DNA from: Malacoraja senta
Lineage: Eukaryota
Direction: 5' to 3'
DNA: 64,000 nt
NCBI GenBank assembly: GCA_038087875.1
Contig: CM075994.1
Span: 10,046,001-10,110,000 of the forward strand
The notes beneath the pieces are model-generated. The model saw only the letters and a program-made list of their open reading frames with translations, was not told where the DNA came from and did no database searches. Position 1 is the stretch's first letter. Each line of letters starts with the position of its first letter. Positions 6,578 through 64,000 of the stretch are shown one piece after another. Position numbers and translations under genes: made by a program.

Positions 6578-7093
6578 ATGAGGAGGGCAATATTAATAGG
6601 GGATTCTATAGTTAGGGGGTCAGACAGGCGATTCTGTGGACGCAGTCGGGAGACCCGGATGGTAGTTTGCCTCCCTGGTGCCAGGGTCTGTGATGTGTCT
6701 CAACGTGTCCAAGACATTCTGAAAGGGCAGGGAGAGGAGCCCGAAGTCGTGATACATATAGGTACCAATGACATAGGTAAAAAAAGAAAAGAGGTCCTGA
6801 AAGGAGAATTTAGGGAGTTAGGAGGGGAGTTAAAGAGAAGGACAGCAAGGGTAACAATCTCGGGATTACTGCCTGTGCCACGCGACAGTGAGAGTAGGAA
6901 TGGAGCGAGGTGGAGGATAAATGCGTGGCTGAAGGACTGGTGCAGAAGGCATGGATTAAAATTTCTGGATCATTGGGACCTCTTTTGTGGAAGGTTCGAC
7001 CTGTACAAAAAGGATGGGTTGCACTTGAACCTGAGGGGGACAGATATCCTGGCGGGGAGATCTGCAAAGGCTACTGGGGAGACTTTAAACTAG
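6578..7093 (+). CDS. CR1 ORF1, SGNH/GDSL esterase domain (5'-truncated)
   Basis: ILIGDSIVR, HIGTND and DGLHLN esterase blocks. Confidence 0.85.
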   Translation: MRRAILIGDSIVRGSDRRFCGRSRETRMVVCLPGARVCDVSQRVQDILKGQGEEPEVVIHIGTNDIGKKRKEVLKGEFRELGGELKRRTARVTISGLLPVPRDSESRNGARWRINAWLKDWCRRHGLKFLDHWDLFCGRFDLYKKDGLHLNLRGTDILAGRSAKATGETLN

Positions 7094-7272: not shown

Positions 7273-10209
7273 ATGCGGGCGGAAGCAATAGGTAGCAAGG
7301 TGAAAAGTAAAAGTGGCAGGCAGACAAATCCAGGGCAAAAATCAAAAAGAGCCACTTTCCAACATAATTGTATAAGGGGTAAGAGCGTTGTAAAAACAAG
7401 CCTGAAGGCTTTGTGTCTCAATGCAAGGAGCATTCGTAATAAGGTCGATGAGTTGAACGTGCAGATAGCAATTAATGATTATGATATAGTTGGGATCACG
7501 GAGACATGGCTCCAGGGTGACCAAGGCTGGGAGCTGAACATCCAGGGATATTCAATATTCAGGAGGGATAGAGAGAAAGGAAAAGGAGGTGGCGTAGCGT
7601 TGCTGGTTAGAGAGGAGATTAACGCAGTGGAAAGGAAGGACATTAGCTTGGAGGATGTGGAATCGGTATGGGTAGAGCTACGAAACACTAAGGGGCAGAA
7701 AACGCTGGTGGGTGTTGTGTACAGGCCACCCAGGAGTAGTAGTGAAGTTGGGGATGGCATCAAACAGGAAATTAGAAATGCGTACAACAAAGGCAAAACA
7801 GTTATAATGGGTGACTTCAATCTACATATAGATTGGGTGAATCAAATTGGCAGCGGTGCTGAGGAAGAGGATTTCTTGGAATGTATGAGGGATAGTTATC
7901 TAAACCAACATGTAGAGGAACCAACGAGAGAGCAGGCTATTCTAGACTGGGTATTGAGTAATGAGGAAGGGTTAGTTAGCAGACTTGTTGTGCGTGCCCC
8001 CTTGGGCAAGAGTGACCATAATATGGTTGAGTTCTTCATTAGGATGGAGAGTGACATTGTTAATTCAGAAACAACGGTTCTGAACTTAAAGAAAGGTAAC
8101 TTTGAGGGTATGAGACGTGAATTGGCCAAGATTGACTGGCAATTAGTTCTAAAAGGGTTGACGGTGGATATGCAATGGAAGGCATTTAAAGACTGCATGG
8201 ATGAACTACAAAAAATGTTCATCGCAGTTTGGCAAAAGAATAAATCAGGGAAGGTAGTGCATCCGTGGATAACAAGGGAAATCAGGGATAGTATCAAAGC
8301 AAAAGATGTTGCGTACAAATTAGCCAGAAAAAGCAGCATACCAGAGGACTGGGAGAAATTCAGAGACCAGCAGAGGAGGACAAAGGGCTTAATTAGGAGA
8401 GGGAAAATAGATTATGAAAGGAAACTGGCAGGGAACATAAAAACTGACTGCAAAAGTTTTTATAGATATGTGAAGAGAAAGAGATTAGTTAAAACAAATG
8501 TAGGTCCCTTGCAGTCAGAAACAGGTGAATTGATCATGGGGAACAAGGATATGGCGGACCAATTGAATAACTACTTTGGTTCCGTCTTCACTAAGGAAGA
8601 CATAAATAATCTGCCGGAAATAGCAGGGGGCCGCGGGTCAAAGGAGATGGAGGAACTGAGTGAAATCCAGGTTAGTCGGGAAGTGGTGTTGGGTAAATTG
8701 AATGGATTAAAGGCCGATAAATCACCAGGGCCAGATAGGCTGCATCCCAGAGTACTTAAGGAAGTAGCTCCAGAAATAGTGGATGCATTAGTGATAATTT
8801 TTCAAAATTCTTTAGATTCTGGAGTAGTTCCGGAGGATTGGAGGGTAGCAAACGTAACCCCACTTTTTAAGAAGGGAGGGAGAGAGAAAACGGGGAATTA
8901 CAGACCAGTTAGTCTAACATCGGTAGTGGGGAAACTGCTAGAGTCAGTTATTAAAGATGGGATAGCAGCACATTTGGAAAGGGGTGAAATCATTGGACAA
9001 AGTCAGCATGGATTTACGAAAGGTAAATCGTGTCTGACGAATCTTATAGAATTTTTCGAGGATGTAACTAGTAGAGTGGATAGAGGAGAACCAGTGGATG
9101 TGTTGTATCTGGACTTTCAGAAGGCTTTCGACAAGGTACCACATAAGAGATTAGGATACAAACTTAAATCACACGGTATTGGCAGTTCAGTATTGATGTG
9201 GATAGAGAACTGGCTGGCAAACAGGAAGCAAAGAGTAGGAGTAAACGGGTCCTTTTCACAATGGCAGGCAGTGACTAGTGGGGTACCGCAAGGCTCAGTG
9301 CTGGGACCCCAGCTATTTACAATTTATATTAATGATCTGGACAAGGGAATTGAAAGCAACATCTCCAAGTTTGCGGATGACACTAAGCTGGGGGGCAGTG
9401 TTAGCTGTGAGGAGGATGCTAGGAGACTGCAAGGTGACTTGGATAGGCTGGGTGAGTGGGCAAATGTTTGGCAGATGCAGTATAATGTGGATAAATGTGA
9501 GGTTATCCACTTTGGTGGCAAAAACGGGAAGGCAGACTATTATCTAAATGGTGGCCGATTAGGAAATGGGGAGGTGCAGCGAGACCTGGGTGTCATGGTA
9601 CACCAGTCACTGAAAGTAGGCATGCAGGTGCAGCAGGCAGTGAAGAAAGCGAATGGTATGTTGGCCTTCATAGCAAGAGGATTTGAGTATAGGAGCAGGG
9701 AGGTTCTGCTGCAGTTGTACAGGGTCTTGGTGAGACCACACCTGGAGTATTGCGTACAGTTTTGGTCTCCAAATCTGAGGAAGGACATTATAGCCATAGA
9801 GGGAGTACAGAGAAGGTTCACCAGACTGATTCCTGGGATGTCAGGAATTTCATATTAAGAAAGACTGGATAGACTTGGCTTATACTCGCTAGAATTTAGG
9901 AGATTGAGAGGGGATCTTATAGAAACGTACAAAATTCTTATGGGGTTGGACAGGCTAGATGCAGGAAGATTGTTCCCGATGTTGGGGAAGTCCAGGACAA
10001 GCGGTCACAGCTTAAGGATAAGTGGGAAATCCTTTAAGACCGAGATGAGGAAAAACTTTTTCACACAGAGAGTGGTGAATCTCTGGAACTCTCTGCCACA
10101 GAGGGTAGTTGAGGCCAGTTCATTGGCTATATTTAAGAGGGAGTTAGATGTGGCCCTTGTGGCTAAAGGGATCAGGGGGTATGGAGAGAAGGCAGGTACG
10201 GGATACTGA
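7273..10209 (+). pseudogene. CR1 ORF2 (APE endonuclease + RT) with one in-frame nonsense codon
   Basis: NARSIRNK, GITETW, GDFN, SDHN, FADD motifs; GAA>TAA at 9856-9858, frame continues to 10209. Confidence 0.9.
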
Positions 10210-16409: not shown

Positions 16410-16425
16410 GGCTCTGAAAAGAGCC
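16410..16425 (-). terminator. Histone mRNA 3' stem-loop
   Basis: Minus strand CCAAA-GGCTCTTTTCAGAGCC-ATTCA, canonical stem-loop. Confidence 0.93.
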
Positions 16426-16489
16426 TTTGGGTCGGAGAGGTGTGGAGAAGGAGGGGGAGAGGGGGAAAAAGCGCGGGAGTTTCGTGTTG

Positions 16490-16909
16490 CTATTTGCAGC
16501 TGGTGTATTTGCTGACCGCTTTGGTCCCCTCGGAGACGGCGTGCTTGGCCAGCTCCCCGGGCAGCAGGAGGCGCACGGCCGTCTGGATCTCCCGGGAGGA
16601 CATGGTCTTCCGCTTGCTGGTGCGGATCAGGTTGGCGGCCTCGGAGGCGATGCGCTCGAAGACGTCGTGCACGAAGGAGTTAATGACACTCATGGCCGAC
16701 GAGGCGATGCGCACGTTGGGGTGGACCTGCTTCAGCACCTTGTAGATGTAGATGCCGTAGTTGAGCTGGCCGCACTTGCGCCGCTGCCGCTGCTTCTGCT
16801 TCTGTTTCTTCTTCTTCTCGCCCGGCTTCAGCCGCTTCTTGACGGGGGCTTTCTTCGGCCTCCCAACCCCCCGGCGCGGCGCTCGGCCCTTGGTTGCCCG
16901 CTGCGGCAT
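16490..16909 (-). CDS. H2B: Histone H2B variant 2 (139 aa, Arg/Lys/Gln-rich N-tail), intronless
   Basis: [13 protein letters not shown]...[20 protein letters not shown]...[29 protein letters not shown] at 16909 lies downstream of the TATA-like box. Confidence 0.9.
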
Positions 16910-16957
16910 CGTCCGCGGCCGCCGCCGACTGTGCCTCGGGCGCGCCGGGCGACCCCC

Positions 16958-17070
16958 TTTCATAGGCGGCCGCATGCAAATGAGGGATCGCAGGGCGCCG
17001 CCATTCCCATTGGCTCTCGATGCGGCCATTCCGCCGCAGACGATTGGTGGCTCGTTGGCCTCATGCAAAT
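16958..17070 (-). promoter_or_regulatory. H2B-type promoter with two octamers and two CCAAT boxes
   Basis: TATGAAA 16958-16964; ATTTGCAT (minus) 16974-16981 and 17063-17070; CCAAT 17009-17013 and 17043-17047. Confidence 0.8.
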
Positions 17071-17114: not shown

Positions 17115-18650
17115 AGAGACAATAGACTATAGACAATAGACAATAGACAATAGACTATAGACTATAGACTATAGACTATAGACTATAGACTATAGACTAT
17201 AGACTATAGACTATAGACTATAGACTATAGACTATAGACTATAGACTATAGACTATAGACTACAGACTACAGACTATAGACTATAGACTATAGACTATAG
17301 ACTATAGACAATAGACTACAGACTACAGACTATAGACTATAGACTATAGACTATAGACTACAGACTACAGACTATAGACAATAGACTACAGACTATAGAC
17401 TATAGACTACAGACTACAGACTATAGACTATAGACTACAGACAATAGACTACAGACTATAGACTACAGACTATAGACTATAGACTATAGACTACAGACTA
17501 TAGACTATAGACTACAGACTATAGACTATAGACAGACTACAGACTACAGACTATTGACTACAGACTATAGACAATAGACTACAGACTATAGACTATAGAC
17601 TACAGCCAATAGGCTACAGACTATAGACAATAGACTACAGACTATAGACTACAGACTATAGACAATAGACTACAGACTATAGACTATAGACTACAGACAA
17701 TAGACTACAGACTATAGACTATAGACTATAGACTACAGACTATAGACTACAGACTATAGACTATAGACTACAGACTATAGACTACAGACTACAGACTATA
17801 GACTATAGACAGACTACAGACTACAGATTATAGACTACAGACTATAGACTACAGACTATAGACTATAGACCACAGACTACAGACTATAGACTATAGACTA
17901 TAGACAATAGACTACAGACTATAGACTACAGACTATAGACTATAGACTATAGACTATAGACAATAGACTACAGACTATAGACTATAGACAATAGACTACA
18001 GACTATAGACAATAGACTACAGACTATGGACTATAGACTATAGACTATAGACTATAGACTATAGACTATAGACTATAGACAATAGACTATAGACAATAGA
18101 CTATAGACAATAGACTATAGACTATAGACAATAGACTATAGACTATAGACTATAGACTACAGCATATAGACAATAGACTAGACTATAGACTACAGACTAT
18201 AGACAATAGACTACAGACTATAGACTATAGACTACCGACTATAGACTATAGACTACAGACTATAGACAATAGACTACAGACTATAGACTATAGACTACAG
18301 ACTATAGACTATAGACTATAGACTACAGACTATAGACTATAGACTATAGACTATAGACTATAGACAATAGACTATAGACAATAAACTATAGACAATAGAC
18401 TACAGACTATAGACAATAGACTACAGACTATAGACAATAGACAATAAACTATAGACAATAGACTATAGACAATAGACTGTAGACTATAGACAATAGACAA
18501 TAAAATATAGACTACAGACTATAGACTATAGACTTTAGACAATAGACTATAGACTATAGACAATAGACAATAAACTATAGACAATAGACTACAGATTATA
18601 GACTATAGACTATAAACAATAGACTATAGACTATAGACAATAGACTATGG
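17115..18650. repeat. Heptamer satellite (GACTATA/GACAATA/GACTACA)n, about 1.5 kb
   Basis: Direct inspection; runs into a reverse-complemented CR1-family 3' end (gacaataggtgcaggagtaggccatt). Confidence 0.97.
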
Positions 18651-18707
18651 ACAATAGGTGCAGGAGTAGGCCATTCCCTCTGGAAGGCGCCTCCTGATTG
18701 TCAAAAC

Positions 18708-33365: not shown

Positions 33366-33730
33366 ATGGCACTGCCCGCGCTCTACCTCTCCCCCCACCC
33401 GCACAGCGCCCACAACGCCGGGGTGCTGGTGGCCCTGGAGTACGGCGGGCAGAGGGCGAGGGTGGTGGACACGAGGAGGGGGGCGTCGGCGGGCGAGGTT
33501 GCCGCCGGTCCGACCGTCGCCGGGCTGCCGGCGGTGGAGGTGGAGTCGGGCGGGCACGTGTGGGGCGGCGCGGCGGTGGCTCACCTCCTGGCACCGGTGG
33601 CGATGAGGGGCCACGGCACTGAGGAGGCCGCCCTGGTGCGGCAGTGGATGAGCTACGCCGACATCGAGCTGCTGCCGATCGCTTGCGCCACCACCTTCCC
33701 GCTCTCGGCCTCTTGAAGCACAACAAGCAG
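33366..33730 (+). CDS. VARS1: Valyl-tRNA synthetase 1, first coding exon (GST-like N-terminal domain), apparent 1-bp deletion near 33698-33700
   Basis: LYLSPHP, LPAVE, VWGGAAVAHLL, AALVRQWMSYADIELLPIAC match the vertebrate VARS1 N-terminus; acceptor tttgcag ends at 33338; donor cag|gtagga at 33730/33731. Confidence 0.85.
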
Positions 33731-40589: not shown

Positions 40590-42206
40590 CAGTGGCTTGC
40601 AAAAGTATTCATACCCCTTGAACTTTTCCACATTTTGTCACATTACAACCACAAACGTAAATGTATTTTATTGGGATTTTATGTGATAGACCAACACAAA
40701 GTGGTGCATAATTGTGAAGTGGAAGGAAAATGATACATGGTTTTCAATTTTTTTTACAAATAAAAAACTGAAAAGTGTGGCGTGCAAAAGTATTCAGCCC
40801 CCCTGAGTCAATACTTTGTAGAACCACCTTTCGCTGCAATTACAGCTGCAAGTCTTTTGGGGTAGGTCTCTACCAGCTTTGCACATCCAGAGACTGAAAT
40901 TTTTGCCCATTCTTCTTTGCAAAATAGCTCAAGCTCAGTCAGATTGGATAGAGAGCGTCTGTGAACCGCAATTTTCAAGTCTTGCCAGAGATTCTCAATT
41001 GGATTTAGGTCTGGACTTTGACTGGGCCATTCTAACACATGAATATGCTTTGATCTAAACCATTCCATTGTAGCTCTGGCTGTATGTTTAGGGTCGTTGT
41101 CCTGCTGGAAGGTGAACCTCCGCCCCCGTCTCAAGTCTTTTGCAGACTCTAACAGGTTTTCTTCCAAGATTGCCCTGTATTTGGCTCCATTCATCTTCCC
41201 ATCAACTCTGACCAGCTTCCCTGTCCCTGCTGAAGAAAAGCATCCCCACAGCATGATGCTGCCACCACCATGTTTCACAGTGGGGATGGTGTGTTCAGGG
41301 TGATGTGCAGTGTTAGTTTTCCGCCACACATAGCATTTTGCATTTAGGCCAAAAACTTCGATTTTGGTCTCATTTGACCAGAGCACCTTCCTCCACGTGT
41401 TTGCTGTGTCCCCCACATGGCTTGTGGCAAACTGCAAACGGGACTTCTTATGGCTTTTTTTCAACAATGGCTTTCTTCTTGTCACTCTTCCATAAAGGCC
41501 CAATTTGTGAAGTGCACGACTAATAGTTGTCCTGTGGACAGATTCTCCCACCTGAGCTGTGGATCTCTGCAGCTCCTCCAAAGTTACCATGGGCCTCTTG
41601 GCTGCTTCTCTGATCAATGCTCTCCTTGCCCGGCCTGTCAGTTTAGGTGGACGGCCATGTCTTGGTAGGTTTGCAGTTGTGCCATACTCTTTCCATTTTC
41701 GGATGATGGATTGAACAGTGCTCCGTGAGCTGTTCAAAGCTTGGGATATTTTTTTATAACCTAACCCTGCTTTAAACTTCTCCACAACTTTATCCCTGAC
41801 CTGTCTAGTGTGTTCCTTGGGCTTCATGATGCTGTTTGTTCACTAATGTTCTCTAACAAACATCTGAGGCCTTCACAGAACAGCTGTATTTATACTGAGA
41901 TTAGATTACACACAAGTGGACTCTATTTACTAATTAGGTGACTTCTGAAGGCAATTGGTTGCACTGGATTTTATTTAGGGGTATCAGAGTAAAGGGGGCT
42001 GAATACTTTTGCACGCCACACTTTTCAGTTTTTTATTTGTAAAAAAATTTGAAAACCATGTATCATTTTCCTTCCACTTCACAATTATGCGCCACTTTGT
42101 GTTGGTCTATCACATAAAATCCCAATAAAATACATCTACGTTTGTGGTTGTAACGTGACAAAATGTGGAAAAGTTCAAGGGGTATGAATACTTTTGCAAG
42201 CCACTG
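40590..42206 (-). mobile_element. Tc1 transposon copy A, 1617 bp, about 210-bp TIRs, TA TSD
   Basis: TA-cagtggcttgcaaaagtattc ... gaatacttttgcaagccactg-TA. Confidence 0.96.
40808..41827 (-). CDS. Tc1 DD34E transposase (339 aa), first catalytic Asp replaced by Asn
   Basis: GRPPK, WSNETK, QQDNDPKH, SPDLNPIE. Confidence 0.93.
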   Translation of the reverse strand: MKPKEHTRQVRDKVVEKFKAGLGYKKISQALNSSRSTVQSIIRKWKEYGTTANLPRHGRPPKLTGRARRALIREAAKRPMVTLEELQRSTAQVGESVHRTTISRALHKLGLYGRVTRRKPLLKKSHKKSRLQFATSHVGDTANTWRKVLWSNETKIEVFGLNAKCYVWRKTNTAHHPEHTIPTVKHGGGSIMLWGCFSSAGTGKLVRVDGKMNGAKYRAILEENLLESAKDLRRGRRFTFQQDNDPKHTARATMEWFRSKHIHVLEWPSQSPDLNPIENLWQDLKIAVHRRSLSNLTELELFCKEEWAKISVSGCAKLVETYPKRLAAVIAAKGGSTKY

Positions 42207-48564: not shown

Positions 48565-48940
48565 TTAAAACTCCCGTTAAACTCCCGATTTTCGCGTCGC
48601 TTTCTGATGACGTCACTCAAACAGCTCCGGTGAGTTTTTTTAAATCGGTCCTGACTCTGAAAACGTCTTTTTAGCGATTTTTACGGGAAAGGAGTTCAAT
48701 ACAGCGCCCTTAGTGCTCCATGGCGCAACCGGAAGTCCGTGGATATATATGTGTGTGTGTAGATATATATATATATGTGTGTGTGTAGATATATATATAT
48801 GTGTGTGTGTGTAGATAAATATGTGTGTGTGTGTGTGTGTGTAGATATATGTATGTGTGTGTAGATAAATATGTGTGTGTGTAGGTATATATGTGTGTGT
48901 GTGTAGATATATGTATATATGTGTGTAGATATATGTGTAG

Positions 48941-49866: not shown

Positions 49867-51483
49867 CAGTGGCTTGCAAAAGTATTCATACCCCTTGAAC
49901 TTTTCCACATTTTGTCACGTTACAACCACAAACGTAAATGTATTTTATTGGGATTTTATGTGATAGACCAACACAAAGTGGCGCATAATTGTGAAGTGGA
50001 AGGGAAATGATACATGGTTTTCAAATTTGTTTACAAATATAAAACTGAAAAGTGTCGCGTGCAAAAGTATTCAGCCCCCTTTACTCTGATACCCCTGAAT
50101 AAAATCCAGTGCAACCAATTGCCTTCAGAAGTCACCTAATTAGTAAATAGAGTCCACTTGTGTGTAATCTAATCTCAGTATAAATACATCTGTTCTGTGA
50201 AGGCCTCAGAGGTTTGTTAGAGAACATTAGTGAACAAACAGCATCATGAAGCCCAAGGAACACACCAGACAGGTCAGGGATAAAGTTGTGGAGAAGTTTA
50301 AAGCAGGGTTAGGTTATAAAAAAATATCCCAAGCTTTGAACATCTCACGGAGCACTGTTCAATCCATCATCCGAAAAAGGAAAGAGTATGGCACAACTGC
50401 AAACCTACCAAGATATGGCCGTCCACCTAAACTGACAGGCCGGGCAAGGAGAGCATTGATCAGAGAAACAGCCAAGAGGCCCATGGTAACTCTGGAGGAG
50501 CTGCAGAGATCCACAGCTCAGGTGGGAGAATCTGTACACAGGACAACTATTAGTCGTGCACTCCACAAATCGGGCCTTTATGGAAGAGTGGCAAGAAGAA
50601 AGCCATTGTTGAAAATAAGCCATAAGAAGTCCCGTTTGCAGTTTGCCACAAGCCATGTGGGGGACACAGCAAACATGTGGAGGAAGGTGCACTGGTCAGA
50701 TGAGACCAAAATTGAAGTTTTTGGCCTAAATGCAAAATGCTATGTGTGGCAGAAACCTAACACTGCACGTCACCCTGAACACACCATCCTCACTGTGAAA
50801 CATGGTGGTGGCAGCATCATGCTGTGGGGATGCTTTTCTTCAGCAGGGACAGGGAAGCTGGTCAGAGTTGATGGGAAGATGGATGGAGCCAAATACAGGG
50901 CAATCATTGACGAAAACCTGTTAGAGTCTGCAAAAGACTTGAGACTGGGGCAGAGGTTCACCTTCCAGCAGGACAACGACCCTAAACATATAGCCAGAGC
51001 TACAATGGAATGGTTTAGATCAAAGCATATTCATGTGTTAGAATGGCCCAGTCAAAGTCCAGACCTAAATCCAATTGTGAATCTCTGGCAAGACTTGAAA
51101 ATTGCTGTTCACAGACGCTCTCCATCCAATCTGCCTGAGCTTGAGCTATTTTGCAAAGAAGAATGGGCAAATATTTCAGTCTCTAGATGTGCAAAGCTGG
51201 TAGAGACATACCCCAAAAGACTTGCAGCTGTAATTGCAGCGAAATGTGGTTCTACAAAGTATTGACTCAGGGGGGTTGAATACTTTTGCACGCGACACTT
51301 TTCAGTTTTTTATTTGTAAAAAAATTTGAAAACCATGTATCATTTCCCTTCCACTTCACAATTATGCGCCACTTTGTGTTGGTCTATCACATAAAATCCC
51401 AATAAAATACATTTACGTTTGTGGTTGTAACGTGACAAAATGTGGAAGAGTTCAAGGGGTATGAATACTTTTGCAAGCCACTG
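49867..51483 (+). mobile_element. Tc1 transposon copy B, 1617 bp, TA TSD
   Basis: Same TIRs as copy A. Confidence 0.96.
50246..51265 (+). CDS. Tc1 transposase (339 aa), catalytic Glu replaced by Val
   Basis: WSDETK, QQDNDPKH, SPDLNPIV. Confidence 0.93.
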   Translation: MKPKEHTRQVRDKVVEKFKAGLGYKKISQALNISRSTVQSIIRKRKEYGTTANLPRYGRPPKLTGRARRALIRETAKRPMVTLEELQRSTAQVGESVHRTTISRALHKSGLYGRVARRKPLLKISHKKSRLQFATSHVGDTANMWRKVHWSDETKIEVFGLNAKCYVWQKPNTARHPEHTILTVKHGGGSIMLWGCFSSAGTGKLVRVDGKMDGAKYRAIIDENLLESAKDLRLGQRFTFQQDNDPKHIARATMEWFRSKHIHVLEWPSQSPDLNPIVNLWQDLKIAVHRRSPSNLPELELFCKEEWANISVSRCAKLVETYPKRLAAVIAAKCGSTKY

Positions 51484-52441: not shown

Positions 52442-54044
52442 CAGTGGCTTGCAAAAGTCTTCATACCCCTTGAACTTTTCCACATTTTGTCACGTTACAA
52501 CCACAAACGTGAATGTATATGTGATAGACCAACACAAAGTGGTGCATAATTGTGAAGTGGAAGGAAAATGATAATTGGTTCTCAAATTTTTTTACAAATA
52601 AAAAACTGAAAAGTGTGGCGTGCAAAAGTATTCAGCCCCCCTGAGTCAATACTTTGTAGAACCACCTTTCGCTGCAATTACAGCTGCAAGTCTTTTGGGG
52701 TATGCGTCTACCAGCTTTGCACATCTAGAGACTGAAATTTTTGCCCATTCTTCTTTGCAAAATAGCTCAAGCTCAGTCAGATTGGATGGAGAGCATCTGT
52801 GAACAGCAATTTTCAAGTCTTGCCAGAGATTCTCAATTGGATTTAGGTCTGGACTTTGACTGGGCCATTCTAACGCATGAATATGCTTTGATCTAAACCA
52901 TCCCATTGTAGCTTTGGCTGTATGTTTAGGGTCGTTATCCTGCTGGAAGGTGAACCTCCGCCCCAGTCTCAAGTCTTTTGAAGACTCTAACAGGTTTTCT
53001 TCCAAGATTGCCCTGTATTTGGCTCCATCCATCTTCCCATCAACTCTGACCAGCTTCCCTGTCCCTGCTGAAGAAAAGAATCCCCACAGCATGATGCTGC
53101 CACCACCATGTTTCACAGTGGGGATGGTGTGTTCAGGGTGATGTGCAGTGTTAGGTTTCCGCCACACATAGCATTTTGCATTTAGGCCAAAAACTTCCAT
53201 TTTGGTCACATCTGACCAGAGCACCTTCCTCCACATGTTTGTTGTGTCCCCCACATGGCTTGTGGCAAACTGCAAACGGGACTTCTTATGGCTTTTTTTC
53301 AACAATGGCTTTCTTCTTGCCACTCTTCCATGAAGGCCCGATTTGTGGAGTGCACGACTAATAGTTGTCCTGTGGACAGATTCTCCCACCTGAGCTGTGG
53401 ATCTCTGCAGCTCCTCCAGATTTACCATGGGCCCCTTGGCTGCTTCTCTGATCAATGGTCTCCTTGCCCGGCCTGTCAGTTTAGGTGGACGGCCATGTCT
53501 TGGTAGGTTTGCAGTTGTGCCATACTCTTTCCATTTTCGGATGATGGATTGAACAGTGCTCCGTGAGATGTTCAAAGCTTGGGATATTTGTTTATAACCT
53601 AACCCTGCTTTAAACTTCTCCACAACTTTATCCCTGACCTGTCTGGTGTGTTCCTTGGGCTTCATGATGCTGTTTGTTCACTAATGTTCTCTAACAAACC
53701 TCTGAGGCCTTCACAGAACAGCTGTATTTATACTGAGATTAGATTACACACAAGTGGACTCTATTTACTAATTAGGTGACTTTTGAAGGCAATTGATTGC
53801 ACTGGATTTTATTTAGGGGTATCAGAGTAAAGGGGGCTGAATACCTTTGCACGCGACACTTTTCAGTTTTTTATTTGTAAAAACATTTGAAAACCATGTA
53901 TCATTTTCCTTCCACTTCACAATTATGCGCCATTTTGTGTTGGTCTATCACATAAAATCCCAATAAAATATATTTACGTTTGTGGTTGTAACGTGACAAA
54001 ATGTGGAAAAGTTCAAGGGGTACGAATACTTTTGCAAGCCACTA
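52442..54044 (-). mobile_element. Tc1 transposon copy C, 1603 bp (14-bp deletion in one TIR, altered terminal base)
   Basis: Same TIRs; deletion near 52517; ends ccacta instead of ccactg. Confidence 0.95.
52646..53665 (-). CDS. Tc1 transposase (339 aa), DD34E triad intact
   Basis: WSDVTK, QQDNDPKH, SPDLNPIE. Confidence 0.93.
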   Translation of the reverse strand: MKPKEHTRQVRDKVVEKFKAGLGYKQISQALNISRSTVQSIIRKWKEYGTTANLPRHGRPPKLTGRARRPLIREAAKGPMVNLEELQRSTAQVGESVHRTTISRALHKSGLHGRVARRKPLLKKSHKKSRLQFATSHVGDTTNMWRKVLWSDVTKMEVFGLNAKCYVWRKPNTAHHPEHTIPTVKHGGGSIMLWGFFSSAGTGKLVRVDGKMDGAKYRAILEENLLESSKDLRLGRRFTFQQDNDPKHTAKATMGWFRSKHIHALEWPSQSPDLNPIENLWQDLKIAVHRCSPSNLTELELFCKEEWAKISVSRCAKLVDAYPKRLAAVIAAKGGSTKY

Positions 54045-56000: not shown

Positions 56001-56006
56001 TTTATT
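56001..56006 (-). terminator. Probable HSP70 polyadenylation signal
   Basis: AATAAA on the minus strand 200 nt after the stop. Confidence 0.65.
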
Positions 56007-56206: not shown

Positions 56207-58126
56207 TTAATCAACTTCTTCGATGGTTGGGCCGCCGGCTGCGTTCTTTCCCATCTGCCCGGCGAAGGAGCCCTCGGGCATGCCCCCATGGTAGAGCTTG
56301 CTGATAATCGGGTTGCAAATCTTCTCCAGGTCTTTCAGCTGCTGTTCGTATTCATCCTTCTCTGCCGTCTGGTTGGACTCCAGCCAGGATATGGTCTGGT
56401 TGCACTTCTCCACCACCTTGTTCTTGTCTTCATCGCCGACCTTGCCCCGCACCTTCTCGTCCTCCACCGAGCTCTTCATGTTGAACGCGCGGGACTCCAG
56501 GGAGTTCTTGGCCGCGATCCGCTCTCGTTGGCGCTCGTCTTGCCCTTTGTACTTTTCCGCCTCCTGCACCATCCTCTCGATCTCCTCCTTGCTCAGCCGG
56601 CCCTTGTCGTTGGTGATGGTGATCTTGCTCTCCTTGCCCGTGCTCTTGTCCACGGCGGACACGTTGAGGATGCCGTTGGCGTCGATGTCGAAGGTCACCT
56701 CGATCTGGGGCATTCCGCGCGGGGCAGGTGGGATGCCGCACAGATCGAACTTGCCCAGGAGGTTGTTGTCCTTGGTCATGGCCCTCTCGCCTTCGTACAC
56801 CTGGATGAGGACCCCGGGCTGGTTGTCAGAGTAGGTGGTGAAGATCTGGGTCTGCTTGGTGGGAATGGTGGTGTTCCTCTTGATGAGGGTGGTCATGACA
56901 CCGCCCGCCGTCTCCAGACCCAACGACAGTGGGGTGACATCCAGGAGGAGCAGATCCTGGACGTTCTCCGACTTGTCCCCCATCAGAATGGCCGCTTGGA
57001 CAGCCGCCCCGTAGGCCACCGCCTCGTCAGGGTTGATGCTCTTGTTCAGCTCCCTGCCGTTGAAGAAATCTTGCAGCAGCTTCTGGATCTTGGGGATGCG
57101 GGTGGAGCCGCCGACCAGGACAATGTCGTGAACTTTTGACTTATCCAACTTGGCATCTTTAAGAGCCTTCTCCACCGGCTCCAATGTGCCTCGGAATAAA
57201 TCGGTATTTAGCTCTTCCAATCGAGCCCTGGTGATTGAGGTGTAGAAGTCAATGCCCTCGAACAGAGAATCGATTTCCACACTGGCCTGGGTGCTGGAAG
57301 ACAGGGTTCTCTTTGCTCTCTCGCAGGCTGTCCGCAGCCTCCTCACCGCCCTCTTGTTCGGGCTAATGTCCTTCCTGAATTTCCGCTTGAACTCCTCAAT
57401 GAAGTGGTTGACCATGCGATTGTCAAAGTCCTCTCCACCCAGGTGGGTGTCGCCGGCTGTGGACTTCACTTCAAAGATACCGTCGTCGATGGTGAGGATG
57501 GACACGTCGAAGGTGCCGCCACCCAGGTCAAAGATGAGGACATTGCGCTCTCCACTGCCCTTCTTGTCCAGGCCGTAGGCAATGGCACCTGCAGTTGGTT
57601 CGTTGATGATGCGCAGGACATTGAGACCAGCGATCACGCCGGCATCTTTGGTTGCCTGCCGCTGGGAGTCATTGAAGTAAGCGGGCACGGTGATAACGGC
57701 GTTGGTGACATTGTAGCCCAGGTAAGCCTCGGCCACCTCCTTCATCTTGGTCAGCACCATGGAGGAGATCTCCTCCGGGTAGAAGGTTTTATTCTCCCCC
57801 TTGTACTCTACCTTCACCTTGGGCTTCCCAGCGTCGCTCACCACCTGGAAGGGCCAGTGCTTCATGTCGGACTGGACCACGGGGTCGTCGAACCTCCTCC
57901 CGATGAGCCTCTTGGCGTCGAAGACGGTGTTGGACGGGTTCATGGCCACCTGGTTCTTGGCCGCGTCGCCGATGAGCCTCTCGGTGTCGTTGAAGGCCAC
58001 GTAGCTGGGGGTGGTGCGGTTGCCCTGGTCGTTGGCGATGATCTCCACCTTGCCATGCTGGAAGACGCCGACGCAGGAGTAGGTGGTGCCCAGGTCGATG
58101 CCAATGGCTGTTCCCTTGGCTGCCAT
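56207..58126 (-). CDS. HSP70: Cytosolic HSP70 (HSPA1/HSPA2-like), intronless, 639 aa
   Basis: [22 protein letters not shown] and [14 protein letters not shown] signatures; ends GPTIEEVD. Confidence 0.98.
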
Positions 58127-58244
58127 TGTTGAGTCCCACCCACGCCTCTGAAACGGTGGACTACTAGCCCGCTGGCCGATCTACCCACCTGCACCTCCCC
58201 AACTCTCCTTTCCGCTCTGCCGCGCCTTCTCGCCTCAAGCCCCT

Positions 58245-58432
58245 TATTTATACCTTCGCGCTCCTGAGCCCAGGCGTCTGATTGACCGCGGCGCCTGCCA
58301 ATGGGGGGCGCAGGTCCAGCGAGGGGGGCGGGACAATCGTCGTTGACGTCACGTGTCCTCTGTGACGTCACCCGGGGACAATCGTCGTTGACGTCACGAG
58401 TCCTCTGTGACGTCACCCGCCCTATGACGTCA
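58245..58432 (-). promoter_or_regulatory. HSP70 promoter: TATA, CCAAT, GC box, five CRE palindromes
   Basis: TATAAATA 58245-58252; ccaat 58298-58302; TGACGTCA at 58344, 58363, 58389, 58408, 58425. Confidence 0.85.
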
Positions 58433-58714
58433 CCCTCCCACCCAACCACCCCTTGGAGATACAACGCGACCATGGAGGGGAATCCCAATTGAAATCCCAG
58501 GTCTACTCCGAAAACAGATCCGTTTTTTCAACTGTTGTTGGGCGAAACAAAACGCTGGCTTCAATGTGCGCGCATCATAATTGCTCTATGGTGACGTTCA
58601 TCTGTGTCTCACCCGTTGCCATGGATCCCCTTTGCATTTCCTGCATTGCTTCTCTGACCCCTCCCCTCCCCAATGTGTTGAACAAGTTCCCCTGAATGAA
58701 CTGGTAAACAAAGT

Positions 58715-59930
58715 TGGTAAAGTTGTTTAGGGCTCTGGTGAGACCACATCTGGAGTATTGTGCACAGTTTTGGTCTCCTAATTTGAGGAAGGTCATCCTT
58801 GTGATTGAGGCAGTGCAGCCCATGTTCACGAGATTGATCCCTGGGATGGCGGGACTGTCATATGAGAAAAGATTGAAAAGACTAGGCTTGTATTCACTGG
58901 AGTTCAGAAGGATGAGGGGGATCTTATAGAAACATATAAAATTATAGAAGGACTGGACAAGCTAGATGCAGGAAAAATGTTCCCAATGTTGGGCGAGTCC
59001 AGATCCAGGGGTCACAGTGTTAAAATAAAGGGGAGGCCATTTAAGACTGAGGTGAGAAAAAACGTTTTCACCCAGAGAGTTGTGAATTTGTGGAATTCCC
59101 TGCCACAGAGGGCAGTGGAGGCCAAATCACTGGATGGATTTAAGAGAGAGTTATATAGTGCTCTAGGGGCTAGTGAAATCAAAGGATATGGGGAGAAGGT
59201 AGGCACGGGTTATTGATTGGGGACGATCAGCCATGATCACAATGAATGGCGGTGCTGGTTCGAAGGGCCGAAGGGCCTCCTCCTGCACCTATTTTCCATG
59301 TTAACCCCATCGTTTATAAACGACCCCTCACAGAAGAGGAAATCTCACAAAAGCCGCTGCTGAATGGCGCTCTGCTAATGTCCACCCATCACTCTTATCC
59401 AGAAGGCAAAGCACTGGTGATGGGTCAGGAAGCATTCTTGCTATTGAGGTTCACTCGGTTAATTCCCGGGATGGCGGGACTGTCATATGCTGCGAGAATG
59501 GAGCGGCTGGGCGTCTACACTCTGGAGTTTAGAAGGATGGGAGGGGATCTTATTAAAACATATAAGATTATTAAGGGTTTGGAGACGCTAGAGGCAGGAA
59601 GCACATTCCGGATGTTGGGGGAGTCCAGAACCAGGGACAACAGTTTAAGAATAAGGGGTAAGCCATTTAGAACGGAGACGAAGAATCGCGTTTTCTCACA
59701 GAGAGTTGTGAGTCTGTGGAATTCTCTGCCTCGGAGGGCGGTGGAAGCCGGTTCTCTGAATAGTTTCAAGAGAGAGCTGGATAGGGCTCTTAAAGATAGC
59801 GGAGTCAGGGGATATGGGGAGAAGGCAGGAACGGGGTACTGATTGTGGATGATCAGCCATGATCACATTGAGTGGCGGTGCTGGCTCGAAGGGCCGAATG
59901 GCCTACTCCTGCACGTATTGTCTATTGTCT
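58715..59930 (+). mobile_element. Two CR1/HER1-type 3' fragments (58715-59300 and 59447-59930)
   Basis: ORF2 C-terminal peptide and conserved 3' UTR. Confidence 0.85.
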
Positions 59931-60361
59931 ATCTCTGCATGACTTGGGTAGGCGACCTTCTTCAGTCTGAATCGCTCAATGGACACATAAAAATTGCTCT
60001 ATCACTCTGTCCTCCACAAGATTCCAGCATCTGCGGCCTCTTGTGTCTAATGTCCGTGCCCATTGCTGATCTTTAATAATAGGAATAGAAGTAAGCTGGG
60101 TGCTTCTTCCAAACTTGATGTGCTCCAATAATATTATATCTCAATTTGAACTTCCTTGATTCATTTCCAATATATTACATTAAGGTGGATTCCATAAGTA
60201 CTTTGGGCCTCGAATCCACTTAACCACTGGGTATCCGCTTGCTTCTGGGGTTGTGTACTCACCAACTCTCGAAGCAGAGGAATTACTCCTGGCCCCATCC
60301 CTAAAGTTACCCCAGCTAAGCCCCCCTATGTACCATACACTGCTGCCAATAAATTAATCTT

Positions 60362-61145
60362 ACGTCATTTTCGCCACCTCCAACCTGACCCCACCACTCG
60401 CCACATCTTCCCATCTCCTCCCCTGTCCGCTTTCCGCAGAGACAGCTCCATCCGTAACTCCCTGGTCAATTCGTTCCTTCCCACCCAAACCATCCCCTCA
60501 CCTGGTACTTTCCCTTGCAACCGCAGGAAATGCTGCACTTGTCGCATTACCTCCCCCCTTGATTCCATCCAAGGACTCAAGCTGTCTTTCCAGGTGTGGT
60601 AGAGGTTCACCTGCACCTCCTCAAACGTCATCTATTGTATCCGCTGCTCTAGGTGTCAGCTGCTCTACATCGGTGAGACTAAGCGCAGGCTTGGCGATCG
60701 CTTCGCCCAACACCTCCGCTCACTTCGCAATAACCAACCTGATCTCCCGGTGGCTCAGCACTTCAACTCCCCCTCCCATTCCGAATCCGACCTTTCTGTC
60801 CTGGTCCTCCACCATGGCCAGAGTGAGCCCCGCCTCAAATTGGAGGAGCAGCACCTCATATTTCGCTTGGGTAATTTACACCCCAGCGGTATGAACATTG
60901 ACCTCCAATTTCAGGTAGTCCTTGCTTTCTCCCTCCTTCCCCTCCCCTTCCCAGCTCTCCCACAGCCCACTGTCTCCGCCTCTCCCGTTCTTCTTCCCGC
61001 ACCACCACCTCCACATCAGTCTGAAGATGGGTCTCGACCGAAACGTCACCTATTCCTTCACTCCATAGATACTGCCTCACCCGCTGAGCTTCACCAGCAT
61101 TTTTGTCCACCTTCGATTTTTCCGGCATCTGCAGTTCTTTCTCAA
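60362..61145 (+). mobile_element. Penelope-like fragment with GIY-YIG region and hammerhead-like end
   Basis: Homologous to 13300-13845 and 29135-29752; ctgaaga..gaaacgtc at 61021-61047. Confidence 0.82.
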
Positions 61146-61964
61146 ACAATAATCTCCCGTCATCTAGCATTTTAAATATCTGCGTGGTTAAATAACAACC
61201 TCTCGCCCTTCTAATCTCCAATGAATATTAGCCCGTTTTATTTACTTCCAGTTGCCCGGATCCAGGTGTGACCTCTGTTCCATCCTGGACCGATGTAGAA
61301 GGATGGATTCATTGGCGATACTTGCGAATGGGGATATCATTAACACGATAACATTTTTTACGGGATTGGCACCGGGGATGACTGGGTTAATGTATGATGC
61401 AGCCTGTATTGGCTGGAGTTCAGTGGGATGAGGGATGGACCTCATTGAAACTTACCGAGCAGTGAAAGAGTGGATGTGGAGAGGGTGTTCCACTAGTGGG
61501 AGAGCCTAGGACCAAGGGGATATGAGGAAGAATTTATTCAGCCAGAGGGTGCAGTTCATTGCCACTAACGGCATTATCTTCAGTTTCCTGTCCACCAATT
61601 TCAACGCAGGAGTAAGCGGATGTACAGTCTGAAAGCCACCACCTATTTTGCTCTAAGGATGCTCTATACAAAATGAACTAGAGCAGGTCACCCATGGGCG
61701 GAAATCCGGGGGGGGGGACGGGGCGACGCCCCCCATGTTTTGATAGCGATTTCCGCCCCTGATCCACCTCTCTCCAAATTGCCGCTGATTGGTCATAATT
61801 TTAATTGCCTTCCGAAGAAATTCTCGGGGAAATAATATCAAAGAGGGAAAAATGAAACAAAAAACGTAGGAAAGATCTTCAGATGCTGGTTTTCAACTGA
61901 AGATAGACACACAGTGCTGGAGTAACTCAGCGGGACAGGCAACATCTCTGGAGAGATGGAATAT

Positions 61965-61996
61965 GTGACGTTTCGGGTCGAGACCCTTCTTCAGAC
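61965..61996 (-). ncRNA. Minimal type I hammerhead-ribozyme-like motif
   Basis: Minus strand gt-CTGAAGA-a-GGGT-ctcg-ACCC-GAAA-CG-TC-ac. Confidence 0.65.
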
Positions 61997-62474
61997 TCTT
62001 TACTGGAATTTATCTTGCATTAAACGTTATTCCCTGTATCTGTTTGAGCCATGTGGACAGCTTGACCCTTATTCAGACTGGGAATCGGTGGGAGAGGGAA
62101 ACTAGAGTTGTGAGAAGGTGCAAAGAACAAATGAATGACATGTGTGAAAAGACCAAATCAATAAACAATAGACAATAGGCTTCTTCTTCTTGCTTATAGT
62201 GTGCACAGCCTAAAGTTATAGGACAACTTGTGGACAAGTTGTGGACAATCAGCCGTGATCACATTGAATGGCGGTGCTAGCTCGAAGGGCCGAATGTCCT
62301 AGTCCTGCATAAAAAAATCAAAGTCAGCAACGACGATCAAGGAAAGGTGGATCCCACAATGGTCCATTGTTGGCGGTGGAAAAGATGACAACTATCTTTA
62401 ACTGGACTTAAGATAGACACAAAAAGCTGGAGTAATTCAGCGGGACAGGCAGCATCTCTGGAGAGATGGAATGG

Positions 62475-62506
62475 GTGACGTTTCGGGTCGAGACCCTTCT
62501 TCAGAC
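62475..62506 (-). ncRNA. Minimal type I hammerhead-ribozyme-like motif
   Basis: Identical core to 61965-61996. Confidence 0.65.
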
Positions 62507-62914
62507 TCTTTACTGGAATTGATCTTGCGTTAAACGTTATTCCCTTTATCTGTTTGAGCCATGTGGACAGCTTGATTCTACAGTCTTTTCATTGACTGGG
62601 TAGCACGCAACAAATTGTTTTCCACTATATCTCGGTATAGGTGGCAATAGGTAAATTAAACTAAACTAAGGTGCAAAAAAATTGAGTACATGTGTAGCAA
62701 ATGGTCGCTATAGTTAGCGGCACGAGTTTCTGCCTTGCAGCGTCAGACCCGGGTTCGATCCTAACTATGGGTGCTTGTCTGTACGGACTTTGTATGTTCT
62801 CACTGTCATCTGCTTGGCTTTCTCCGGGAGCTCCTGTTTCCTCCCACATTCCAAAGATGTACAGGTGTGCCGGCAAAATTAAAAATTAAAAATGACCCTA
62901 GTGGGTAGGTAGGA

Positions 62915-63383
62915 TGACAAAAATGCTGGAGAAACTCAGCGGGTGAGGCAGCATCTATGGAGCGAAGGAATAGGTGACGTTTCGGGTCGAGACCCTTCTT
63001 CAGACTGACGTGGGGGTGGGAGGGGCGGGAATAAGAACGGAAGAGGCGGAGACTGTGGGCTGTGGGAGAACTGGGAATGGGAGTGGAAGGAGGGAGAAAG
63101 CAAGGACTACCTGAAATTGGAGAAGTCAGTGTTCATACCGCTGGGGTGCAAACTACCCAAGCGAAATATGAGATGCTGCTCCTCCAATTTGCGGTGGAAC
63201 TCACTCTGGCCATGGAGGAGGCCCAGGACAGAAAGATCGGATACGGAATGGGAGGGGGGAATTGAAGTGCTGAGCCACCGGGAGATCAGGTTGGTTAATG
63301 CGGACTGTGCGGAGGTGTTGGGCGAAGCGATCGCTAAGCCTGCGCTTGGTCTCACCAATGTAGAGCAGCTGACACCTAGAGCA
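62915..63383 (-). mobile_element. Penelope-like 3' fragment
   Basis: GIY-YIG C-terminal peptide LEEQHLIFRLGSLHPSGMN followed by the hammerhead-containing end. Confidence 0.82.
62974..63005 (-). ncRNA. Minimal type I hammerhead-ribozyme-like motif in a Penelope terminal region
   Basis: Identical core, about 100 nt downstream of the Penelope ORF stop. Confidence 0.68.
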
Positions 63384-63862
63384 GTGGGTAGGGTGGTGCT
63401 AATGTGCGGGCACCTCTGGTCGGCGCGGACTCGATGGGCCGAAGTGCCTGTTTCCGCGCAGTATCAGCCATGATCACAATGAATGGCGGTGCTGGCTCGA
63501 AGGGCCGAATGGCCTCCTCCTGCACCTATTTTCTATGTTTCTATCTCTCAACTGAACTGAACGATATCGTTGAACATTGCTACAGAATTCCGCTGATTAT
63601 CATTAAGAAACTAAGCGCCGAGTATATTGAATTTTTTTTTAAAGGCCCGTTTAAAACAAGATGAGGCAAGGAAGAACGTTAACTTTGCAATCTCTGCATA
63701 ATATGGGGCAGACGAGAAACTCATTTACGATAGACCATTTGGTTACCTTTACAAGTCAAGCAGTTTCTGGCTGCAAAGTATAATCTGTCCAGTTAGCGAC
63801 TAAAATTCTGCTGTTGATTTCAGATAAAGGAAAGATTGGGGGAGAGGAGAGAGGGTGGGTGG

Positions 63863-64000
63863 TCAGTCAACCTCGTAAATTGTTGGCCCACTGAAAGAGT
63901 CTCCTTTTCCAGCCTGCGCCCCAAAACCAGACGGCATGTCTGCCCGTTGCGGCCCGAAGATGATGGGGTGACAGATGTTTTCCAGGTCTCGCTGCTGGGT
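63863..64000 (-). CDS. HSP70: 3' end of a second HSP70 paralog (runs off the window), ending GPTIYEVD
   Basis: TQQRDLENICHPIIFGPQRADMPSGFGAQAGKGDSFSGPTIYEVD-stop aligns with the C-terminus of the HSP70 at 56207-58126. Confidence 0.88.
   Translation of the reverse strand, partial: TQQRDLENICHPIIFGPQRADMPSGFGAQAGKGDSFSGPTIYEVD

Follow-up and report, generated by a model that had tools for sequence, protein, structure and literature searches.

HSP70 genes that are not induced by heat are already well known, HSPA1L and HSPA2 being established cases, and inducibility has changed repeatedly within the family (PMC8423806). In mammals, HSPA1A, HSPA1B and HSPA1L lie within MHC class III, and HSPA1L is described as expressed in spermatids and not heat-induced (PMC2266713, PMC4336284); furthermore, mouse Hspa1l is listed as CREM-bound in a review table, with a log2 fold change of −1.81 in the knockout (PMC10454534). 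Among the matches listed for the open-licence literature, no paper deals with the promoter of an elasmobranch HSP70 or with a CRE array before an HSP70 gene, and Yu et al. (2021) do not mention shark, cartilaginous or MHC. Here, we describe an HSP70 gene of the skate Malacoraja senta (GenBank assembly GCA_038087875.1, contig CM075994.1, positions 10,046,001 to 10,110,000; this whole 64,000-nucleotide stretch is referred to as the window), the promoter of which carries an array of CREs where heat-shock elements (HSEs) might be expected. The oddity of this promoter is real, and it belongs to a gene in a multi-gene HSP70 cluster, for which mammals offer a close functional precedent.

The HSP70 gene and its CRE array

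The gene, its promoter and the repeat that bounds it comprise the following features:

56001–56006, minus strand: AATAAA polyadenylation signal, ~200 nt after the stop codon
58126 to 56207, minus strand: intact, intronless open reading frame (ORF) of a cytosolic HSP70 of 639 aa ending in EEVD (ORF list and Pfam)
58127–58222, minus strand: inferred 5′ UTR of ~95 nt, its start site placed from TATA spacing only
58252–58245, minus strand: TATA box, TATAAATA (motif match)
58280–58285, no strand assigned: candidate NF-Y site, a one-mismatch CCAAT (motif scan)
58298–58302, no strand assigned: candidate NF-Y site, a perfect CCAAT inverted relative to the gene (motif scan)
58326–58331, plus strand: GC box that overlaps the left boundary of the 45-bp duplication (motif scan)
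58330–58419, no strand assigned: 45-bp tandem duplication (period 45, 2.0 copies), holding the CREs at 58344, 58363, 58389 and 58408
58406–58439, no strand assigned: 17-bp head-to-tail repeat, 15/17 identical, holding the CREs at 58408 and 58425
58417–58422, no strand assigned: second GC box (motif scan)
58721–59301, plus strand: fragment of a LINE-type repeat that is present many times in the window; it delimits the unique promoter

The encoded protein matches the Pfam HSP70 family over residues 7–612 (PF00012, E = 1e-260, 866 bits), and all seven motifs of an HSP70 set are present (three family signatures, the interdomain linker and the terminal EEVD). Its closest named relative, an HSP70 of Rhinoraja longicauda with 96% identity overall, bears the name “cognate 71-like”, yet the skate protein falls outside the HSC70 clade. 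In a 48-row tree, built from this protein and 47 others picked from 196 (with HSPA1L, HSPA2 and HSPA6 absent), it pairs with the Rhinoraja protein (100/100) inside a seven-row clade of sharks and rays (96/94), and outside a six-row HSC70 clade (100/99). Both this placement and the single ORF suggest that the gene is not of the HSC70/HSPA8 type. Near-invariant columns depart from consensus at 10 positions in the skate protein, 7 of which have the same residue in Rhinoraja, compared to 3–7 positions in four other fish HSP70s, and such residues are a possible, mild sign of functional specialization of this paralogue. Seven off-consensus residues (positions 180, 251, 303, 472, 500, 564 and 595) are common to Rhinoraja only, or nearly so. 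A search of sequencing runs listed 24 runs, with 0.10–0.19 of the words found in 18 RNA or guessed-RNA rows and 0.22–0.56 in six others, word shares that say nothing about expression or tissue.

Turning to the promoter, the palindrome TGACGTCA is present in perfect form at 58344, 58363, 58389, 58408 and 58425, spanning 89 bp (58344–58432), in agreement with the preliminary description, which had claimed five perfect CRE palindromes within 90 bp. All five lie 92–173 bp upstream of the TATA box, and they account for five of the six such sites in the window, shuffles of which contain 0.69 sites on average and three at most. The sixth CRE (48608–48615) lies ~45 bp upstream of an ORF (48564 to 47992) that we take to resemble LINE-1 ORF1, and its flanks are unlike those of the HSP70 CREs (2–4 of 9 bases shared). 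As the same description had stated, four of the promoter CREs derive from a 45-bp tandem duplication (58330–58374 and 58375–58419), and we find the copies to be identical at 44 of 45 positions, with the sole difference at 58354/58399 and an E-box at 58350 kept in the first copy only. This duplication is young, and the 17-bp repeat is older. As the 45-bp and 17-bp repeats contain them, the five CREs are not independent, and since two of them (58408 and 58425) share the 17-bp repeat, the number of independent sites that call for an explanation falls to about two. Nested duplications thus amplified about two CREs to three, and then to five.

We compared this array with dinucleotide shuffles of the 594-bp unique promoter, in which two or more CREs arise in 0 of 5000 cases, whether or not the 45-bp copy is collapsed (three CREs remain after collapse), whereas 72 of the 5000 contain one CRE. 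The cores are all perfect over 8 bp and the two old sites share just 2–4 of 9 flanking bases, a contrast that is partly circular because the sites were picked by their cores. A pattern search for triple-CRE arrays returned 9 viral and at least 120 metagenome stretches; none of these 129 listed loci encodes an HSP70, their likeness to the skate promoter being limited to the CRE array, and no viral or LTR source of the promoter was found among them. A transposon origin is likewise unsupported inside the window, with no match to the promoter of more than 14 bp elsewhere in the 64 kb.

The TATA, CCAAT and GC boxes that had also been noted are indeed present, at 58252–58245, at 58298, and at both 58326 and 58417, respectively. 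Read toward the gene on the minus strand, the order is one CRE, a GC box, four CREs, a GC box, the inverted CCAAT, the near-CCAAT, the TATA box, the inferred 5′ UTR of ~95 nt, and the ATG at 58126. The TATA box is ~120 bp from the ATG, which, judged from sequence only, suggests that there is no 5′ untranslated exon. The inferred 5′ UTR has no upstream ATG and leads into a favorable start context, with A at −3 and G at +4, and a 40-nt donor/acceptor-like pair within it is presumably too short to be an intron. The CpG observed/expected ratio is 0.96 in 58127–58450, compared to 0.55 across the window, and this retention of CpG around the array is consistent with an unmethylated, bindable promoter. 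Pattern scans gave no ERSE, UPRE or AP-1 match in 58127–58720 and, with neither ERSE nor UPRE in this interval, the promoter does not appear to be of the ER-stress (ATF6/XBP1) type.

We note that the LINE label of the bounding repeat is our assumption, made from RT-like ORFs. An 861-aa endonuclease/RT-like ORF at 7273–9858 (plus strand), which we take to be a CR1-type LINE, has an upstream ORF at 6578–7093 and many truncated copies in the window. Three near-intact transposase ORFs of 339 aa, presumably of Tc1 type, lie at 40808–41827, 50246–51265 and 52646–53665, flanked by TG/AT-rich low-complexity arrays.

Heat-shock elements and the genomic neighborhood

The preliminary description had reported that the ~300 bp before the TATA box are free of HSE arrays, and our motif scan bears this out and finds no good site as far as the window end: there is no three-unit HSE with two or fewer mismatches in 57900–58917, and no perfect nGAAnnTTCn dimer, gapped HSE or stepped HSE in 58127–64000. 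Three-unit HSE-like sites with two mismatches and an intact G/C number 10 in this latter interval, and all of them lie beyond 59400. The promoter hence has no proximal HSE of at least three nGAAn units, the hallmark of HSF1-inducible genes of the HSPA1A type. However, because 36 of 150 shuffles likewise contain no three-unit match better than three mismatches, the lack of HSEs is to be read as absence and not as depletion.

The genes around the CRE-bearing HSP70 are the following:

16490–16909, minus strand: histone H2B gene (Pfam), a synteny marker
33366–33730, plus strand: isolated first VARS1 exon (83% to the valine-tRNA ligase of Leucoraja), likewise a synteny marker
63863–64000, minus strand: C-terminal end of a second HSP70 gene, cut by the window edge, in tandem with and on the same strand as the CRE-bearing gene

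The second HSP70 gene ends 5.7 kb upstream of the CRE-bearing one. The best match of its tail is Heptranchias HSP70-1A (68% over 44 aa), with the CRE-bearing gene at 51%, and the two tandem genes are therefore old, distinct paralogues. It terminates in YEVD, not EEVD, there is no AATAAA or ATTAAA in the 460 bp that follow it, and it is possibly a decaying paralogue. The VARS1 exon is frameshifted near 33700 and has six residues inserted in comparison with other skates, and no further VARS1 exon was found in the 64-kb window; it is either a pseudo-exon or an assembly error. An Amblyraja model likewise consists of a short N-terminal VARS1 piece, named EF1-gamma-like. A Pfam scan of non-repeat reading frames of at least 45 aa assigned a family to 0 of 150, the VARS1 exon and the second HSP70 having been found otherwise. 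The H2B locus (16410–17070, minus strand) contains two octamer motifs (16974 and 17063) and a histone stem-loop (16410), which together look like a replication-type promoter on a variant-looking histone. The H2B protein has a long N-terminal tail rich in Arg, Lys and Gln, and a 7-bp satellite of 221 copies (17117–18657) lies directly upstream of the H2B promoter.

Mammalian HSPA1A, HSPA1B and HSPA1L are linked to VARS1 and LSM2, the latter being, we assume, the gene annotated as smx5 in elasmobranchs. The tables of PMC10751288 (supplementary file 1) place seven HSP70 genes on the MHC chromosome of the sawfish, followed by smx5, histone genes and vars1; the white shark has 10 rows labeled HSPA before smx5 and vars1; and the catshark has unnamed genes of 2.3–2.5 kb at the same place. 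HSP genes go unmentioned in the searched main text of that paper. As the tandem HSP70 genes, the VARS1 exon and the H2B gene match this elasmobranch block, the window would most likely be part of the MHC class III HSP70 block, in a locally rearranged form, since the VARS1 exon is frameshifted and opposite to its sawfish orientation. No LSM2-type motif was found between the CRE-bearing HSP70 and the VARS1 exon. The CRE-bearing gene is one specialized member of a multi-gene cluster and does not represent a species-wide loss of the heat-shock response.

Probable regulation by CREB-family factors and its alternatives

With five CREs and no HSE, the gene probably owes its activation to CREB-family factors and not to heat, and we consider it likely that it is at once CRE-driven and HSF-independent. 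We infer factor binding, the lack of heat induction and the tissue of use, as well as the MHC location, from the features described above. Our preferred reading, which we advance tentatively, is that of an HSF-independent, CREB/CREM-driven paralogue that works like mammalian HSPA1L. CREB-family bZIP dimers (CREB1, ATF1, CREM) would occupy the CRE array and, joined by NF-Y at the CCAAT boxes and by Sp1 at the GC boxes, would drive transcription from the TATA promoter without HSF1. Serial local duplications, of 17 bp and then of 45 bp, took the array from about two to five CREs, probably raising output, and the main use would most likely be chaperone supply in male germ cells via CREM-tau, as for mammalian HSPA1L. 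In a tandem HSP70 cluster, such specialization of one paralogue is to be expected. The idea of an HSP70 rewired to cAMP, ATF or germline control, put forward in the preliminary description, stands in part: full CREs less than 300 bp from the TATA box, NF-Y and Sp1 sites, and no HSE for 5.8 kb favor CREB/ATF-family over HSF control, but this is tempered by the membership of a tandem cluster and by the precedent of the CREM-bound, non-heat-induced Hspa1l in the mammalian one.

Data from mouse spermatids count against the germline part of this reading, in that a full CRE is reported in just 13% of CREM sites, ~1% of CREM-bound promoters are CREM-dependent, and, of 58 regulated promoters, 6 contain a TATA box; testis-specific promoters favor CRE-like over full CREs, and regulation is not predicted by full CREs or by TATA boxes (PMC3091680). 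The pairing of a full CRE with a TATA box is described instead as a signature of cAMP/Ca2+-induced somatic genes (PMC5740062).

A possible, if doubtful, alternative is somatic CREB/ATF1–CRTC control. The gene would then have no special germline role, and would either be expressed constitutively across many tissues or respond to cAMP, Ca2+ or stress kinases, as under hormonal or osmotic signals. Many rapidly induced transcripts carry ATTTA pentamers, and none occurs between the HSP70 stop codon and the polyadenylation signal, which argues weakly against this alternative. It is favored by the position of all five CREs, 92–173 bp from the TATA box, as in the proximal CRE/TATA class that is induced by cAMP and depolarization via CRTC1 (PMC5740062), by the CpG-island promoter with its NF-Y and Sp1 sites, and by the increase in shark HSP70 protein, but not ubiquitin, under hyposmotic exposure, as seen with an antibody that pools paralogues (PMC5066598).

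Residual heat induction, through an HSE beyond the window or shared within the cluster, with the CREs supplying ATF1 as a helper of HSF1 or setting the basal level, is unlikely. The protein does belong to a lineage whose fish and mammalian members are mostly named inducible HSP70, ATF1 is reviewed as part of the HSF1 complex at HSP70 promoters (PMC12160081), and the window ends inside the next HSP70 gene, whose promoter falls outside it. However, the whole of 58127–64000 is free of perfect HSE dimers and of gapped or stepped HSEs, and HSPA1L constructs that include the HSPA1A HSEs are reported to remain uninduced by heat (PMC4336284), and thus nearby HSEs need not act on a neighbor.

Finally, that the extra CREs are neutral slippage products of one or two ordinary CpG-island CREs, or that the 45-bp copy is an assembly error, is improbable: the nested repeats reduce five sites to about two, the shuffles yield one CRE in 72 of 5000 cases, arrays of three CREs are no rarity in nature (metagenomes contain at least 120 such stretches), and the window holds two N gaps and a frameshifted exon, but the 45-bp copies differ at one base, unlike an exact read duplication, the five 8-bp cores are perfect where the flanks of the two old sites share 2–4 of 9 bases (in part circularly), and three CREs are left after the copy is collapsed, when 0 of 5000 shuffles reach two.

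Returning to the preferred reading of a CREB/CREM-driven paralogue, a broader proposal, which we regard as rather unlikely in full, is that the MHC-linked HSP70 cluster of cartilaginous fish holds an HSF-free, CREM-driven germline member, that the HSPA1A/HSPA1L division either goes back to the ancestor of jawed vertebrates or arose twice at one locus, and that CRE dose is now being tuned in the skate lineage by serial duplication. If the gene is used in the germline, it would date or replicate HSPA1L-type specialization far outside mammals; if its use is somatic and driven by cAMP, it would offer an unusually clean case of an HSP70 under hormone- or osmotic-signal control. At the sequence level, the promoter offers a means of telling heat-responsive from unresponsive genes in the large HSP70 arrays of sharks and rays, all of which are pooled in antibody-based HSP70 stress assays of elasmobranchs, and the nested duplications (about two to three to five CREs) form a natural series for relating site number to promoter strength.

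Comparison with known HSP70s and CRE-regulated genes

Mammalian HSPA1L (Hsp70-Hom, Hsc70t) shares with the skate gene an intronless coding region and, most likely, membership of an MHC class III cluster, and is itself not heat-induced, and CREM-bound in mouse spermatids. It differs in having a 5′ untranslated exon (PMC2266713), of which the skate sequence gives no sign, and in being inverted next to HSPA1A, whereas the skate gene is in tandem with its neighbor and is preceded by five full CREs in a compact TATA promoter. The likeness would be one of function; the tree, built without HSPA1L, places the skate gene among elasmobranch HSP70s (96/94). The promoters of HSPA1A and HSPA1B similarly combine a TATA box with sites for NF-Y and Sp1 before an intronless HSP70, but contain two HSEs and show 5–6-fold heat induction in reporters (PMC4336284), while the skate promoter has the CRE array instead of an HSE. 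The testis-enriched HSPA2 also combines an intronless coding region with the lack of a functional HSE, and is reported not to be heat-induced (PMC4326386); it lies outside the MHC and groups with HSPA8, whereas the skate gene, in a tree without HSPA2, stands apart from the six HSC70 rows.

At the level of the locus, the elasmobranch MHC class III array of sawfish and white shark likewise has short tandem HSP70 genes beside histone genes and vars1, but includes smx5/LSM2, where the skate window has an orphan VARS1 exon and no LSM2-type motif; the tables that describe this array give coordinates and names only. At the level of the promoter, the closest counterparts are the proximal CRE/TATA genes c-fos, Dusp1 and Nr4a1/2, which have CREs less than 300 bp upstream of a TATA box (PMC5740062), as do all five sites of the skate promoter. 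These genes, however, have few CRE sites, often half sites, as opposed to the five full palindromes built up by tandem duplication in the skate HSP70.
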